From an archaeon (GTDB lineage Archaea; Iainarchaeota; Iainarchaeia; Iainarchaeales; 0-14-0-20-34-12), in NCBI GenBank assembly GCA_038046645.1, contig JBBSVU010000011.1, forward strand, positions 7,778 through 42,888: a stretch of DNA of 35,111 bases, given 5' to 3'. Under the pieces are notes generated by a model that did no database searches, had not been told where the DNA came from, and saw nothing but the letters and a program-made list of their open reading frames with translations. Position 1 is the stretch's first letter; the number at the start of each line of letters is the position of its first letter. A program made the position numbers and the translations under genes. Below are positions 3,341-34,496 of this stretch, piece by piece.

Positions 3341-3489
3341 CTTAATTATCTATTTAAATATTATTACATAGTTCTCTATATACTATTGCCAAATGTTTCT
3401 TTTAGGCCTTAAAGAAATAGTTTTCTTTTGGATTCCAGAGTTTTCTTTTGGACTCTAAAAGACTTTTCTTTTCTAACGAAAAGGATTTT

Positions 3490-3563
3490 GGGCGTGTAGC
3501 TCAGTCTGGTAGAGCAATGGTCTTATACGCCATCGGTCAGCGGTTCAAATCCGCTCATGCCCA
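3490..3563 (+). tRNA. tRNA-Ile, anticodon UAU
   Basis: Cloverleaf: acceptor GGGCGTG/CATGCCC, discriminator A; D stem GCTC/GAGC; anticodon stem ATGGT/GCCAT with loop CT-TAT-AC; T arm AGCGG-TTCAAAT-CCGCT; no encoded CCA, no intron. Confidence 0.92.
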
Positions 3564-3571
3564 AACCAAGC

Positions 3572-3600
3572 CTTTCTTTTCTTTAAAAAAGAAAAGAAAG
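3572..3600. terminator. 13-bp hairpin downstream of tRNA-Ile(UAU)
   Basis: CTTTCTTTTCTTT-aaa-AAAGAAAAGAAAG. Confidence 0.45.
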
Positions 3601-3649
3601 TCTAGGTATTATCCCAAGAAAAGAAACTAAAAATAAAAAACGATGTAAT

Positions 3650-4093
3650 ATGGCTAGAAGACCTTTAAGTTTTGGAAGACGCAGGGTTGTAAAAAGTTTA
3701 AAAAGCCCTACAATTCCGCAACTAAAGCTGCCTAAAACATTATTTGGAAAAGTATTCCCAAGGCCTTTGGAATTGCCTTTTGCGAGAAAAGGAGAACCAA
3801 ATGAAGGAACCTTGCAACATTTGGCACAGTGTAAGGCAGAATTTGAAAGGGCAAGAGACAAAAATGATTTTAGGGAAATGCATTTTTGGAAAGGCCGTTT
3901 TGATATTTCAATCAAGAGATTTTTGGGGAATGTGCCAGAAGGTTTTGGGACTGAAGCCTTTGAAAGTTATTGTAGAACTCAGGTTCGTAGTGCTTCTATC
4001 CAGTCTGATGTTGCTGAGTCAAGGGAATGGGAAGATTTAAGGAATCTTTCTGAGGAATACCGAAAGCAGTTTTTGTTAAAAAAGAAGAATTAG
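3650..4093 (+). CDS. Hypothetical basic protein
   Basis: 147-aa ORF, R/K/P-rich N-terminus, no recognisable domain. Confidence 0.7.
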   Translation: MARRPLSFGRRRVVKSLKSPTIPQLKLPKTLFGKVFPRPLELPFARKGEPNEGTLQHLAQCKAEFERARDKNDFREMHFWKGRFDISIKRFLGNVPEGFGTEAFESYCRTQVRSASIQSDVAESREWEDLRNLSEEYRKQFLLKKKN

Positions 4094-4115
4094 CTAATAT
4101 TATTTTTGATGTTTT

Positions 4116-4361
4116 ATGCCAAATCCAAGAATTCCTAGGAGAACAGGCACTAAGCCTAAGAGAAGAGAAACATTAATCTCAAAAATAAGCTCTCCAGATA
4201 CTCCTGAATTTTGGGAAAAAGGGGCAAGTAAGTTGGCAGAAAAAGGCTTGACCGAAGCTGCTGCTGCAAGCAGAGCTATAGCAGAAAAATTAAGAAGTCA
4301 AGGAGAAAACCGTGGAGTAAAATTTAATGCCTTGAAAATAAGGAGAAAACCAAAATCTTAA
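4116..4361 (+). CDS. Hypothetical small basic protein
   Basis: 81-aa ORF filling the gap to ileS; starts MPNPRIPRR. Confidence 0.65.
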   Translation: MPNPRIPRRTGTKPKRRETLISKISSPDTPEFWEKGASKLAEKGLTEAAAASRAIAEKLRSQGENRGVKFNALKIRRKPKS

Positions 4362-4403
4362 TGATTGGGTTATTAATATTAAAAAAATATTTTTGTGATT
4401 TTT

Positions 4404-7271
4404 ATGACAGGAACACTGCAGGAATACACGCTTGAAAAAGAAAAAGAGATACTTGAATTCTGGAAAAAGAATAAAATTCCGGAAAAGGTTGAAGAGCTGT
4501 CTTCCAAAAACAAGAAAACGTTCTATTTCATGGACGGTCCTCCATATGCAACAGGCCATATACATATGGGCACTGCTTTAAACAAAATTCTGAAGGATGT
4601 TGCTATACGTTCAAAAAGAATGCAAGGCCAAAATGTTTTCTGCAGGGCAGGATATGATACACACGGATTGCCGATTGAGCACAAGGTTGAGAAGGAATTA
4701 GGCATAAAGAATAAGCAGGAAATTGAAGAATATGGTGTGCAGAAATTTGTTGATGCCTGCAGGAAATTTGCAACAGAGCATATAGACACAATGAATGCTG
4801 AATTCTTAAATTTAGGCGCTTGGCTAGATTTCAAAAACCCTTATCTAACACTTACAAATGAATATATTGAAGCAATCTGGTGGACATTCAAAAAAGCAGA
4901 GGAAAAAGGCCTTTTATTCTTAGGAAAATATCCTATTCATGCATGCCCAAGATGTGCAACTGCTGTCGCATATAATGAAATCGAATACATTAAGCAGACA
5001 GACACAGCGGTTTATGTCAAATTCCCTGTGAAAGGAAAAGAAAATACTTTTTTATTAATCTGGACCACTACGCCATGGACGTTAATTGATAATGCTGGTG
5101 TAATGATTCACCCAAAATATGAGTATGCAGAAGTAAAGATGAGCAATGGCGAAAAATGGATTCTTGCAAAAGAGCTTGTTGAACCAATAATGAAGATTCT
5201 GGAAGCAGGTTATGCGATTGAGAAAATTTATGTTGGAAAGGAATTGGAAGGCTGGACATATGAAAATCCTTTGTCAAAGAATATAAAGATTCCAAAAGAA
5301 GAATTGAAAGAGGCCTACAGGGTTGTTCTCTCAGATAGGTATGTTACTTTGGAAGAAGGAACTGGTTTAGTGCATGTTGGTTCAGGCCATGGAAAAGAAG
5401 ACTATGATGTTGCTGTAAAAACAGGGCTGCCGATAATTTGCACAATCGGTTTGGATGGAAAAATGGATCAGAGAGCAGGGAAATATGCAAATGGAATAGC
5501 CAGAATAATTGACAAGGAAATTGTAAAGGATTTGGAAGAAATGGGAATGCTTATTTACAAGCACCATTATACGCATGATTATCCAGTATGCTGGCGTTGT
5601 AAAACTCCATTATTAATGATTTCATCTGAACAATGGTTCTTTAAGATTGAAGACATAAGAAATAAACTGATTGAAGAAAATAAAGGTGTTTATTGGGTTC
5701 CTGCCTGGATGAAAGACCGCATGAATAATTGGCTAGAATCTTTGGGAAATTGGCCTATCTCGAGGGAAAGATACTGGGGCACTCCTTTGCCTATTTGGGT
5801 TTGTGAGGATGAAAAATGCAAATCCCGCAAGGTTCTTGGTTCTGTTGAAGAATTGAAAAAAGAATCAGGATTGAAAGACATTAAAGATTTGCACAAGCCG
5901 TTTATTGATTCTGTTTTCCTGAAGTGCAAATGCGGAAGCAGGATGAAAAGAATCCCGCATGTGATGGATGTCTGGTTTGATTCCGGCGTAAGTTCCTGGG
6001 GCGCTTTGGATTACCCAAAAAGAAAGGATTTGTTTGAAAAATTCTGGCCTGCTGATTTGAATATTGAAGGCACAGATCAAGTAAGGGGCTGGTGGAATTC
6101 GGAAATAATTACCTCAATGATATGCTTTGACAAAAAACCGTTCAAGGCAATTGCTGTGCATGGCATGGTCTTAGATATTGGCAAGAAAAAGATGTCAAAA
6201 AGCCTTGGCAATATTATACAGCCGAGTGAGGTTATTGAAAAATATAACCGTGATTACCTTAGGTATTATTTAGTTAAGTATTCAAAAGGCGAGGATTTAA
6301 CATTTGACTGGGAAATTTTCAAGGATATAAAAAGATTTTTCAATATTCTCTGGAATAGCATAAACTTTGCCTCAATTTACCTTGATTTGGAATTCACTGA
6401 AAAATTGCCAAAGAAATTAATGCCAGAAGACCGCTGGATTCTCAGCAGGTTAAATTCATTAATTCTAGAGACAGAAAAAAATTATAATAATTATACTTAT
6501 TACCAGATAATTTCAGCAGTAGAAAGCTTTGTGCTTGATGATTTCAGCAGAACCTACATTAAGCTCATAAGGGACAGGACTTCTTCTGACAAAGAAAATG
6601 TAAGCATTATGTTCAACCATATTGTTTCTGCACTTCTGAGGCTGCTTGCGCCTGTTGCACCGCACATAACAGAGTATGTCTACCAGGGATATGGAAAAAA
6701 AGCAAAAGGCCATAAGGAAAGCATTCATTTGTACAATCTTCCTGTTGCGGATAAATCCTTGATTGATGAAAATCTCGATAAGGAAATGAATCTTGTAAGA
6801 GAAATTTCCCAAAATGTTTTAAGCATGAGGAATGAGAATAATTTGCGTTTAAGATGGGTTTTGAAATCATTAGCAATTGAAAGCAATGATTCATTAATCC
6901 CAAACCTGAAAGATGTTCTGGCTAGCATGACTAATGTGAAAAAGGTTTATGAAGTAAAAACAAAGCCAGCAGGAAATTTCATCATGAAGGAACTTCCCAT
7001 GGCTAAAATTTATCTTGATAAGGATGCTGACGCTTCTTTGAAGGAAGAATGGGAACTGCGTGAACTGATAAGGAAGATACAGGACAAAAGGTCTGATTTG
7101 AAATTAAACCCAAATGATACTGTAAAGCTTTTGATAAGCTGCGATGATGCAAAATTCCTGGATAAATTCAAAAAAGACATTGAAAAAGAAACCAGTTCAA
7201 AAATTACGCTAAAAAATGGCCAGCTTGAAAAGTTGCTGGAAAGGTCATTCTATTTTTCAATTGAAAAATAA
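4404..7271 (+). CDS. ileS: Isoleucine--tRNA ligase
   Basis: DGPPYATGHIHMGT (HIGH equivalent), GYDTHGLPIE, WTTTPWT, ISRERYWGTP, DVWFDSG, EGTDQVRGW, KMSKS; likely start ATG 4404. Confidence 0.97.
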   Translation: MTGTLQEYTLEKEKEILEFWKKNKIPEKVEELSSKNKKTFYFMDGPPYATGHIHMGTALNKILKDVAIRSKRMQGQNVFCRAGYDTHGLPIEHKVEKELGIKNKQEIEEYGVQKFVDACRKFATEHIDTMNAEFLNLGAWLDFKNPYLTLTNEYIEAIWWTFKKAEEKGLLFLGKYPIHACPRCATAVAYNEIEYIKQTDTAVYVKFPVKGKENTFLLIWTTTPWTLIDNAGVMIHPKYEYAEVKMSNGEKWILAKELVEPIMKILEAGYAIEKIYVGKELEGWTYENPLSKNIKIPKEELKEAYRVVLSDRYVTLEEGTGLVHVGSGHGKEDYDVAVKTGLPIICTIGLDGKMDQRAGKYANGIARIIDKEIVKDLEEMGMLIYKHHYTHDYPVCWRCKTPLLMISSEQWFFKIEDIRNKLIEENKGVYWVPAWMKDRMNNWLESLGNWPISRERYWGTPLPIWVCEDEKCKSRKVLGSVEELKKESGLKDIKDLHKPFIDSVFLKCKCGSRMKRIPHVMDVWFDSGVSSWGALDYPKRKDLFEKFWPADLNIEGTDQVRGWWNSEIITSMICFDKKPFKAIAVHGMVLDIGKKKMSKSLGNIIQPSEVIEKYNRDYLRYYLVKYSKGEDLTFDWEIFKDIKRFFNILWNSINFASIYLDLEFTEKLPKKLMPEDRWILSRLNSLILETEKNYNNYTYYQIISAVESFVLDDFSRTYIKLIRDRTSSDKENVSIMFNHIVSALLRLLAPVAPHITEYVYQGYGKKAKGHKESIHLYNLPVADKSLIDENLDKEMNLVREISQNVLSMRNENNLRLRWVLKSLAIESNDSLIPNLKDVLASMTNVKKVYEVKTKPAGNFIMKELPMAKIYLDKDADASLKEEWELRELIRKIQDKRSDLKLNPNDTVKLLISCDDAKFLDKFKKDIEKETSSKITLKNGQLEKLLERSFYFSIEK

Positions 7272-22857: not shown

Positions 22858-23826
22858 TTATTGAAACGCAGTAGGGTGCTTGAAAAAAGCCCTTGCATAC
22901 ATTGCTTCTGCCTTTATTCCTGCAAATGCCTTTGCCCTATTTGCTACTTTTGCAGCATATGCTTTTCCTGCCTGCCTTTTCTCTTTTTTAGTGAAATATC
23001 CTGTAAGCCCTTTGTTGTAAGAACCTCTTGCTGCTTGCAATTGATTGTCATATCCTACAATGCCACGTTTAGCAGCCATATTCATTAAATATCTTAAGTA
23101 GCCAATGCCTGCATCAAGATTGCATAAAGGATCAAATGTATTCCACTTTCTATCATTTGAAAATCTTCTTAAGCCTAACCGCATTATCTCTTCTTCAGCC
23201 AAAGGGGTAATCTGCATTAACCCTAAATCATTGTTTCTGCCAACAGCTTTTTCATTAAAAGTGCTTTCCTGCATTATTTGCCCCAACACATCTTCAGGCT
23301 TAATGCCATGCGCTGCAGCAAATTCAGAAGCAATGAATTGCAATACTAATATTCTTTCAGCAGAAACTTTTGCTTTCCTGTCTCTTGGTGCTTTTGTTTG
23401 TGCAAGCAGTCTTTCATATGCCGGAATTCTGCCTTCTATATCTTCTGGCCTAATATTGCTCAAAGGTTTATATTTTAATTTCGGCAGTTTGATTCTCTTA
23501 AATTCTTCTTTTGCTTTGCGTGCAGCTTCCTTGCTATTTCTAAATACTTCTTTGCGCTCAATTTGATTTTGCATTCTTAGCTTTCTGCTAGAAACAGTGT
23601 TTCCTTGATCAGTAAATCTGCCTTGTTTAGCTGCATTGTTTGCATTTCCTGAATTTATTGCAGCAGTTGTTTGTGCCTGCCTTGCTTCAGGGGTTAATGC
23701 CTTGCCAATAAAATAACCCGCAGGAAGCATTGCAGCAGCACCTATTGCCCCTACAAGCGCTATTCTTCTAAGTTTTCTTGAATGTCTTAGTGCTTCTATC
23801 AAACTAGGTCTTCTTCTTGTCGGCAT
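22858..23826 (-). CDS. Membrane-anchored lytic transglycosylase (SLT/GH23 domain)
   Basis: IMQESTF (catalytic Glu), GLMQI, FDPxxNLDAGIGYL, SYNKG; basic N-terminus followed by a hydrophobic helix. Confidence 0.9.
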   Translation of the reverse strand: MPTRRRPSLIEALRHSRKLRRIALVGAIGAAAMLPAGYFIGKALTPEARQAQTTAAINSGNANNAAKQGRFTDQGNTVSSRKLRMQNQIERKEVFRNSKEAARKAKEEFKRIKLPKLKYKPLSNIRPEDIEGRIPAYERLLAQTKAPRDRKAKVSAERILVLQFIASEFAAAHGIKPEDVLGQIMQESTFNEKAVGRNNDLGLMQITPLAEEEIMRLGLRRFSNDRKWNTFDPLCNLDAGIGYLRYLMNMAAKRGIVGYDNQLQAARGSYNKGLTGYFTKKEKRQAGKAYAAKVANRAKAFAGIKAEAMYARAFFKHPTAFQ

Positions 23827-27383: not shown

Positions 27384-28304
27384 ATGGAAAGGGTAATACA
27401 GCATATTTTGAGCAAGGAAATGAAAGATGTTTTGACAGTCCAAACAACCGCATTGAAAGCAATCCATGATTATATGTGGAAGCATGATATATTGCAATTA
27501 ATGCCGGTTATGCTTTCCTCAGTAACAGACCCATTGTGCCACAGCGTATATGACTCATCAATATCCTATGGCGGGCAAAAGCTTGAACTAACAAAAAGCA
27601 TGATTTTGCACAAGCAATTATCAATGATGCGCGGTGATTTGAAAGGAATTTATATCATATCGCCGAACATCCGTCTTGAAAAAGAGCATTTGGGTGAAAC
27701 CGGAAGGCATCTGTTAGAATTTAGCCAGGTAGATATTGAACTAAGAGATGCAAAATACAAGGATTTTATGAGATTTACTGAAGGATTATATTCACATATC
27801 TTCAAATTTGTGAGAAAGGAATGCAAAGAAGAGCTTTCTGCTTTTGGAAGAAAAATCAAAGTCCCAAAAAAACCATTTAAGATTTATGAATCGGCAATGG
27901 AATTAAAGAAGGAATATGGCCCTTCCTTTGACCTAGAGCTTTCAAAAAAAGAAAAGGATTTGTTTTGGGTGATGGACCATTACCGTGAATTTTATGATAG
28001 GGAAGACCCTGTAACTAAGAGGCACGTGAATTATGATTTAATGTATCCTGAAGGTTTTGGTGAAGCACTGTCAGGAGGGGAAAGGGAAACAGACCATAAA
28101 ACAATACTCAGAAAAATGGGTGAAAGAAAAACCGATATCAGCAAATATAAGCCATATGTTGAAATCTCAAAAAGAGGCTTGTTGAAACCTACTGCTGGCG
28201 GCGGTTTTGGGGTAGAACGTTTAGTAAGATTCCTAACAGGAAAAAAACACATAAAGGATGTTTCATTATTCCCAAGGGTTCCAGGGGAAGAAATAATTGT
28301 TTAA
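27384..28304 (+). CDS. asnA: Archaeal asparagine synthetase A (AsnRS-like, lacking anticodon-binding domain)
   Basis: SSVTDPL, LTKSMILHKQ, SPNIRLE, RHLLEFSQVDIE, EALSGGERE, GGGFGVERL. Confidence 0.93.
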   Translation: MERVIQHILSKEMKDVLTVQTTALKAIHDYMWKHDILQLMPVMLSSVTDPLCHSVYDSSISYGGQKLELTKSMILHKQLSMMRGDLKGIYIISPNIRLEKEHLGETGRHLLEFSQVDIELRDAKYKDFMRFTEGLYSHIFKFVRKECKEELSAFGRKIKVPKKPFKIYESAMELKKEYGPSFDLELSKKEKDLFWVMDHYREFYDREDPVTKRHVNYDLMYPEGFGEALSGGERETDHKTILRKMGERKTDISKYKPYVEISKRGLLKPTAGGGFGVERLVRFLTGKKHIKDVSLFPRVPGEEIIV

Positions 28305-28341
28305 ATCCTTCCACTTCTTTTATTCTGTTATTGGTGATATT

Positions 28342-28860
28342 TTGGCTGTCAAAAAAATACTGCTGTTAGGCAACAAAATTTTGCGTAAAAAAAGCAAAAA
28401 AGTTTCTCTGCAGCAAATCGATAAAAAACTTATTGCTGATTTGAAAGACACCCTGCTTGATTTTAGGAAAAAAGAAGGCTTAGGCAGGGGAATAGCTGCT
28501 CCGCAAATAGGCATAACCAAAAGAATGCTCTGTATAATCACCAAAGAATTTTCAGGAATTATGATTAATCCGAAAATTGTGAAAAAAAGCAAGAAAAAAA
28601 TTAAAGTTTGGGACAGCTGCTTTAGCTTAAAAGCCGCGATTTTCTGCAAGGTTTTAAGACATAAGGAAATTGAGGTTGAATTTTTTGATGAAAAAGGAAA
28701 AAAGCAGAAAATTGCCGCAAAGGATGCCTTGTCTGAATTATTGCAGCATGAAATCGACCATTTGGGCGGAATAATGTGCACCGACTTAATCAAATCAACA
28801 AAAGACATCATCATGCGAGAGGAATGGGAAAAGAAGGGCAAACCGTTTTTGGCTGATTGA
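28342..28860 (+). CDS. def: Peptide deformylase-like protein
   Basis: GRGIAAPQIG, variant DSCFS, QHEIDHL; GGTGA RBS before TTG 28342. Confidence 0.88.
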   Translation: MAVKKILLLGNKILRKKSKKVSLQQIDKKLIADLKDTLLDFRKKEGLGRGIAAPQIGITKRMLCIITKEFSGIMINPKIVKKSKKKIKVWDSCFSLKAAIFCKVLRHKEIEVEFFDEKGKKQKIAAKDALSELLQHEIDHLGGIMCTDLIKSTKDIIMREEWEKKGKPFLAD

Positions 28861-34421: not shown

Positions 34422-34496
34422 TGGGCATGGGCGGATTTGAACCGCCGACCGCACGATTATCAGTCGTGTGCTCCAACCAGGCTGAGCTACACGCCC
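34422..34496 (-). tRNA. tRNA-Ile, anticodon GAU
   Basis: Acceptor GGGCGTG/CATGCCC+A; anticodon stem CACGA/TCGTG, loop CT-GAT-AA; T arm GGCGG-TTCAAAT-CCGCC. Confidence 0.96.

Follow-up and report, generated by a model that had tools for sequence, protein, structure and literature searches.

The window analysed here is a stretch of 35,111 nucleotides from an Iainarchaeota/Diapherotrites (DPANN) archaeon whose genome assembly comprises 1.17 Mb in 25 contigs and is 89.2% complete. DNA of the window was found in groundwater and aquifer metagenome runs from several studies. ARAGORN identifies three tRNA genes in it and calls the one studied here, tRNA-Ile(tat), at 3489-3564; Rfam model RF00005 matches it with 70.6 bits (gathering score 29, E 1.1e-13, model positions 1-71). 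We place the gene, which has neither an intron nor an encoded CCA, at 3490..3563 on the plus strand. It is full-length against the Rfam model, with no non-standard pairs flagged, and the intact cloverleaf with anticodon TAT that had been described from the sequence alone is thus present.

Read directly from the sequence, the anticodon (U34 A35 U36) occupies 3524..3526 of the plus strand, within the loop C32 U33 U34 A35 U36 A37 C38. C38 and G39 lie at 3528..3529 on the same strand, and G39 pairs with U31 at 3521, giving an anticodon stem AUGGU/GCCAU that includes a U31-G39 wobble. Both C38 and the wobble had been pointed out in the sequence-only reading, and both are there. The discriminator base is A73. 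A second isoleucine tRNA of the window, tRNA-Ile(GAU), the reader of AUU and AUC, is encoded at 34422..34496 on the minus strand (ARAGORN; Rfam 67.5 bits with alignment), and it and tRNA-Ile(UAU) share one acceptor stem, GGGCGUG/CAUGCCC.

Nine nucleotides past the 3' end of tRNA-Ile(UAU) lies a perfect 13-bp, T-rich pyrimidine/purine hairpin (3572..3600, plus strand; CTTTCTTTTCTTT / AAAGAAAAGAAAG), and ttttcttttgga is repeated upstream of the tRNA at 3421-3470. Contigs of other samples vary by 1-2 nt at 3584/3587 of the hairpin. Relatives have similar hairpins after the tRNA, and such hairpins also occur inside a 144-nt intron of the tRNA gene at L001, the closest related locus. The window hairpin is possibly a 3' processing or termination signal. 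Two small, basic, lineage-specific reading frames from the ORF list come next on the plus strand: orf147 (147 aa, 3650-4093) and orf81 (81 aa, 4116-4361). They match no Pfam or PHROGs family, and the sole relative detected is a weak 36-aa match (E 3e-5) at the same place in L001.

Beyond these frames, ileS, encoding isoleucyl-tRNA synthetase (IleRS), occupies 4395..7271 of the plus strand (Pfam tRNA-synt_1, E 2e-121; Anticodon_1; DUF5915). Its first ATG, at 4405, is 842 nt past the 3' end of the tRNA on the same strand, in agreement with the co-oriented tRNA 840 bp upstream of ileS that the sequence-only reading had reported.

Conservation of the tRNA gene

We rule out that tRNA-Ile(UAU) is a pseudogene. 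In one cloverleaf alignment of 36 distinct intron-less relatives, the CTTATA loop is unchanged in all 36 and compensatory changes occur at 12 of the 21 stem pairs; the gene has evolved under structural constraint. A sequencing error at the anticodon, a concern raised together with the original proposal, is excluded as well: the TAT 5' half recurs in 140 of the 151 phylum genomes that we sampled, and over 3352-4178 the window agrees at every position with a contig of 827 nt from another sample, the two being only partly independent because that contig belongs to the same study as possible source samples. A 163-nt contig from an RNA library covers 3944-4106 only, outside the tRNA, and at tRNA-Ile(UAU) the DNA runs X8 and X10 gave nothing beyond short look-alike pieces.

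Introns of 20-144 nt interrupt 8 of the 44 distinct Iainarchaeota UAU tRNAs, and 35 of the 44 are intron-less. At L001:1999-2218, in a locus whose IleRS is 86% identical to that of the window, tRNA-Ile(UAU) contains a hairpin-rich intron of 144 nt at 37/38 that the window gene does not have. An intron has thus recently been gained or lost between close relatives.

Demand for an AUA reader in the host is high. Across the genome (697 ORFs with a minimum length of 200 aa), ATA accounts for 31.4 per 1000 codons and for 36.8% of those specifying isoleucine. The frequent ATA codons noticed in the window are confirmed by the 15 Pfam-supported genes within it (27.9 per 1000), and ileS itself contains 22. 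The ATA positions of IleRS align to V, L, I or F in 29 bacterial homologues, with M outside the six commonest residues, which, given the poor conservation of ATA sites, is weak evidence.

TiaS and CAU tRNAs in the host and a closed relative

The usual archaeal route to AUA uses a tRNA-Ile2 with a CAU anticodon, in which TiaS converts C34 to agmatidine. A profile search for TiaS_FLD (PF08489) in the host's own genome (89.2% complete) gave no match, and 4 of 4 control archaea were positive. With two full-length TiaS proteins of relatives as queries, tblastn found no credible match in the own genome (best E 0.009) or in G001, a closed relative of 1,241,428 bp in one contig that is 99% complete (best E 0.44). 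The sole sub-threshold tblastn match in the own genome, at C14:77464-77871 (E 0.009), takes in the OB-fold and zinc-ribbon part only, and probably represents an unrelated OB/zinc-ribbon protein.

Automated counts of CAU tRNAs are unreliable in these genomes, since intron-split Met tRNAs are misnamed and the counts come to zero Met tRNA. Run with introns allowed, ARAGORN reports no CAU tRNA in either the own genome or G001, an artefact of misplaced introns; it names the initiator Ser(cga) and the elongator Ala(ggc) (in the own genome) or Ser(gga). Our census combines ARAGORN with custom structural scans and is blind to split or permuted genes and to any gene interrupted in its acceptor stem, D arm or T arm by an intron. 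A strict scan for an intact CAU stem-loop returned nothing tRNA-like. Two loosened scans were very noisy, and from them we kept only candidates whose arms were tRNA-like on reading.

Exactly two CAU tRNAs were found in the own genome, both of them intron-split. The initiator tRNA-Met (C6:16069-16158, minus strand) is marked by A1-U72 and a GGG/CCC anticodon stem, and an intron of 15 nt interrupts it at 37/38. The elongator tRNA-Met (C1:79755-79867, minus strand; acceptor GCCGGGG...CCTCGGC-A) is interrupted twice, at 31/32 by a 20-nt intron and at 37/38 by one of 18 nt. Its exon borders follow from the spliced arm, TTCGA-CTCATAA-TCGAA, which is identical to that of the intron-less elongator Met tRNAs of relatives; an MFE fold of the corresponding two-intron precursor from G001 gave neither a tRNA shape nor a clear BHB. 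The two Met tRNA genes of G001 are at 981849-981978 and 714151-714277.

In the own genome, ARAGORN and the structural scans revealed neither a third CAU tRNA nor a third Ile-like one, and G001, which has the UAU tRNA, yielded no TiaS and no third CAU tRNA. The CAU tRNAs of both genomes are therefore two only, the initiator and elongator Met species, with no Ile-like CAU tRNA among them. The own assembly is incomplete, with some ten expected tRNAs missing from it, so absence of TiaS and Ile2(CAU) there does not by itself amount to proof, and the case rests on the relatives.

Mutual exclusion of the two systems across the phylum

Our phylum sample contained 151 genomes, 55 of them high-quality. 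TiaS (TiaS_FLD, PF08489) was detected in two, G057 and G132, from two families of the host's class other than its own, and in none of the 55 high-quality genomes. A pattern for the 5' half of the UAU tRNA, ending in CTTATA, matched 140 of the 151 genomes, including 54 of the 55 high-quality ones; the reversed pattern, used as a control, had no matches. The loss of TiaS suggested for this organism is borne out: the enzyme was not found in the own genome, in closed G001 or in 149 of the 151 phylum genomes. The opposite arrangement that the sequence-only reading had weighed, with tiaS and tRNA-Ile2(CAU) present and the UAU gene absent from relatives, is not the one that prevails.

The two TiaS-positive genomes also stand apart in their CAU tRNAs. 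An elongator-type CAU pattern, ending in CTCATA, matches 47 of the 151 genomes; 45 of these have a single match, and only G057 and G132 have two. Each of the latter carries an elongator-type tRNA-Met (GCCG...CGGC-A) alongside a second CAU tRNA with the loop CUCAUAA and an acceptor stem that is Ile-like, GGGCCUA...UAGGCCC-A; judged by these features, the second looks just as a tRNA-Ile2(CAU) is expected to look. The UAU pattern had no match in G057 or G132, and no UAU tRNA was among the 49 tRNAs that ARAGORN identified in their loci (the best 30 of 74 Rfam matches).

Not one of the 151 genomes combines TiaS with the UAU pattern. Nine TiaS-negative genomes are also without the UAU pattern, probably through incompleteness or variant D arms. 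Across the phylum, TiaS with Ile2(CAU) on one side and the UAU tRNA on the other are mutually exclusive, genome by genome. We regard this exclusion as the strongest support for agmatidine-independent reading of AUA, which had been proposed for a single organism and which we can now uphold as a trait of the phylum.

The isoleucyl-tRNA synthetase and its linkage to the tRNA

The best solved relatives of the window IleRS are IleRS chains, and the closest loci, labelled Candidatus Iainarchaeum or Diapherotrites, reach 86% identity. A Pfam search of the window enzyme did not find the type-1 zinc-binding C-terminal domain; DUF5915 is there instead. Its C-terminal alignment to solved IleRS2 is too weak for placing the position-34 pocket. 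The idea that IleRS type switches with decoding strategy was dropped, the IleRS of TiaS-positive genomes being 44% identical to the window enzyme over nearly the full length. PMC13752280 classes the Diapherotrites enzyme as IleRS2 and describes the expression and assay of one such IleRS, which makes charging experiments look feasible.

Of the 35 closest IleRS loci, 22 have a co-oriented UAU tRNA upstream, 16 of them recovered by plain ARAGORN and 6, L001 included, with introns of 43-144 nt, and the spacer is often only about 80-250 nt. This sample was chosen through ileS, and the 13 loci without a UAU tRNA include one holding just 159 nt upstream. When loci were instead sampled by the tRNA (n = 30), ileS lay within the available downstream sequence (up to 1.5 kb) in 10; 4 of the 20 ileS-negative loci have only about 1.1 kb or less downstream. 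Closed G001 also has the UAU tRNA upstream of ileS and co-oriented with it. The genes for a thermosome, an MscS-like channel, orf344 and orf281 are conserved around the tRNA-ileS pair as well. We interpret the linkage as synteny that some families have inherited, not as an operon.

Position 38 of the anticodon loop

We surveyed 52 Iainarchaeota loci, which reduce to 44 distinct spliced sequences, 43 of them parsed by script. C38 occurs with U31-A39 in 33 distinct sequences and with U31-G39 in six, the latter including the window (L085) and its closest relative L001; A38 occurs with U31-G39 in four. The one sequence that the script did not parse has C38 and A39 by eye. C38 is thus near-fixed (39 of 43 parsed, plus the one by eye, or 40 of 44; 35 of 36 in the alignment of intron-less UAU tRNAs). 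The U31-G39 wobble does not share in this: it is present in 10 of the 43 parsed sequences and is not conserved. A38 together with A39 was not seen among the 43.

In the own genome C38 is unusual, being present in 2 of 25 intron-less tRNAs. Position 38 is A in the Ile2(CAU) of the TiaS-positive relatives and in every elongator tRNA-Met that we observed.

A wider scan, with one genome per species, for tRNAs that combine a UAU anticodon with an Ile-like D arm gave at least 120 stretches, 80 of which were listed, and the counts that follow describe those 80 and are not frequencies. The matches listed come mostly from CPR/Patescibacteria and also from Planctomycetes, Chloroflexota and Streptomyces (one on a plasmid); the archaea among them are Woese-, Pace-, Nano-, Aenigmat- and Undinarchaeota and one member of the Thermoplasmata. 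Of 20 archaeal loci among the matches listed, 18 could be parsed. Fifteen are credible tRNAs with A38, most of which contain an intron and many of which have U31-G39; a further A38 call, L220, is not tRNA-like, and two loci with C38 resemble Iainarchaeota sequences. The 57 bacterial stem-loops among the matches listed divide into 28 with C38, mostly from CPR, and 27 with A38. These comparisons mark C38 as a signature of the lineage, with recurrence in CPR bacteria, and show that UAU decoding can do without it.

A model for AUA decoding and its alternatives

We consider it very probable that tRNA-Ile(UAU) is the sole AUA reader of the host, that it works without TiaS or agmatidine, and that it is charged by the IleRS encoded downstream. 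The anticodon U34-A35-U36 would pair with AUA by Watson-Crick geometry, and direct reading of this kind would make the TiaS/agmatidine route superfluous, in line with its absence. Expression of the tRNA and its charging by the downstream-encoded IleRS are predicted, with an indirect indication in the acceptor stem and A73, both shared with tRNA-Ile(GAU). Keeping U34 off AUG would need something further, for which the candidates are an Elp3-type modification of U34 or the lineage-specific C32/C38 loop. Elp3 has been linked to xm5U-type modification of U34. The own genome encodes an Elp3 (TIGR01211, 612.7 bits against a cut-off of 350), and an xm5U-type modification of U34 in the window tRNA is a possible candidate.

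Could the UAU tRNA instead be an extra or back-up AUA reader, with tiaS and tRNA-Ile2(CAU) hidden in the unassembled 11% of the genome? The completeness of 89.2% and the many tRNAs missing from the assembly leave room for such a pair, and bacteria in which LAU and UAU tRNAs coexist have been described (PMC3575796). Against redundancy, however, closed G001 has the UAU tRNA at 99% completeness and neither TiaS nor a third CAU tRNA, TiaS occurs in 0 of 55 high-quality genomes, and in 0 of 151 does it accompany the UAU pattern; we give redundancy almost no credence. A separate proposal would turn the tRNA and ileS into a functional unit, co-transcribed or co-regulated, that couples the AUA reader to the supply of IleRS. 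The co-oriented arrangement in 22 of 35 loci and in G001, often with short gaps, is what such a unit would produce. Yet the tRNA-sampled loci have ileS nearby in just 10 of 30 (allowing for the 4 of 20 negatives with short flanks), and the thermosome, the MscS-like channel, orf344 and orf281 are conserved too, as synteny would have it. In the window itself two unrelated ORFs and a T-rich hairpin separate the genes, and an AT-rich stretch lies immediately 5' of ileS. A functional unit of this kind therefore seems unlikely to us, if less so than redundancy.

A further suggestion, in essence that of the sequence-only reading, concerns fidelity: C32/C38 may replace the strong C32-A38 pair of tRNA-Ile2(CAU), and the weaker binding in the A site would penalise U34-G pairing on AUG. 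The near-fixation of C38 in the phylum, its scarcity among the other tRNAs of the host, the A38 of both Ile2(CAU) and elongator Met tRNAs, and its recurrence in 28 of the 57 bacterial UAU tRNAs among the matches listed, mostly CPR, all fit this suggestion. So does the view, taken from PMC4238358, that the 32-38 pair tunes A-site selection, stronger pairs lowering near-cognate fidelity and pair strength affecting near-cognate rejection. But A38 serves in 15 credible UAU tRNAs of other archaea among the matches listed, in four Iainarchaeota sequences and in 27 of the 57 bacterial ones, so C38 is dispensable, and inheritance alone could explain near-fixation within one phylum. Under the theory of PMC4238358, a weak anticodon made of A and U only should even go with a strong pair at 32-38, not with a weak one. 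A fidelity role is a reasonable candidate, which we rate as rather doubtful. We are similarly tentative, and inclined against it, about a broader version in which loss of TiaS in the phylum went together with a change from A38 to C38 in the UAU tRNA, and convergent C32/C38 in CPR marks a setting that reads AUA and rejects AUG. If that version were true, the phylum would be a natural before-and-after pair for the loss of an essential modification enzyme.

Comparison with known systems

The genetic code has a classic weak point where AUA (Ile) must be distinguished from AUG (Met), for which agmatidine is the solution in most archaea. The UAU strategy that we favour for the host is already known from ARMAN, Nanoarchaeum and Korarchaeum, and within DPANN it is ordinary. 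Fujishima et al. 2011 describe ARMAN-2, -4 and -5 as having tRNA-Ile(UAU) and lacking TiaS and tRNA-Ile(CAU) (PMC3239211). The likeness to the host extends to a small genome of DPANN affiliation and to intron-rich tRNAs, including introns at non-canonical positions (PMC3239211). The UAU gene of ARMAN-2 carries a 25-nt intron at 37/38 (same paper), unlike the intron-less window gene. Iainarchaeota differ from ARMAN in being another phylum, in their near-fixed C38, and in that two families of the class have TiaS and Ile2(CAU), which puts both states among relatives.

According to PMC8450103 and PMC6000648, tRNA-Ile3(UAU) replaces tRNA-Ile2(CAU) in N. equitans and K. cryptofilum, and these were the only UAU cases among 167 archaeal genomes surveyed in 2018. 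Those are single species from surveys of cultured or complete genomes, whereas 140 of 151 sampled genomes are concerned here. The word rare that the sequence-only reading applied to the tRNA accordingly suits the older literature only: UAU tRNAs are the usual state in this phylum, and they are common among other DPANN archaea and in CPR.

Mycoplasma mobile is the bacterial UAU case that has been studied, with TilS lost (Taniguchi et al. 2013; PMC3575796). In both cases the enzyme that modifies C34 is gone (TilS there, TiaS here) and a UAU tRNA reads AUA, and both organisms face the same two problems, namely that IleRS must accept U34 and that AUG must stay unread (PMC3575796). The M. mobile enzyme is adapted through Arg865 in a type-1 zinc-binding domain, according to the same paper, and that domain was not found in the window IleRS. 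As far as domain content tells, the window enzyme is not of the M. mobile type.

A natural comparison on the side of archaeal chemistry is a mutant haloarchaeal tRNA-Ile(UAU) that carries 5-cyanomethyl-U34, described in PMC3895270. It too is an archaeal UAU tRNA-Ile, with a U34 of the xm5U type, a chemistry for which the Elp3 of the own genome is a candidate. That tRNA, in contrast, is a laboratory mutant in a lineage that contains TiaS; the Iainarchaeota state is natural and phylum-wide.

Eukaryotic UAU genes often contain an intron at 37/38, and pseudouridylation of their tRNA-Ile(UAU) depends on the intron; among Iainarchaeota 8 of 44 have such an intron, and the window gene has none. Since 35 of the 44 distinct relatives are intron-less like the window gene, an intron-dependent modification is not general here. 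In the eukaryotic cytoplasmic tRNA, positions 34 and 36 are pseudouridine (PMC6000648).

We found no report on UAU decoding in Iainarchaeota or Diapherotrites in a literature search that covered subscription journals poorly. Two findings are new in this work: the two systems exclude each other genome by genome, and they differ at position 38, from A38 in one to C38 in the other. A whole DPANN phylum joins the lineages that use a plain UAU tRNA, and with an old system (TiaS and Ile2(CAU), A38) and a new one (UAU, C38) in one class it offers a clean comparative system, suited to asking what else changes once a modification enzyme is lost.

Other genes of the window

Elsewhere in the window, a 306-aa class-II aminoacyl-tRNA synthetase core without an anticodon-binding domain (27384-28304) overlaps the start of a peptide deformylase gene (28297-28860). 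A protein with an SLT lytic-transglycosylase domain is encoded near this pair, at 22858-23826. Peptide deformylase is typically a bacterial enzyme, and both it and the SLT lytic-transglycosylase protein are unusual for an archaeon.
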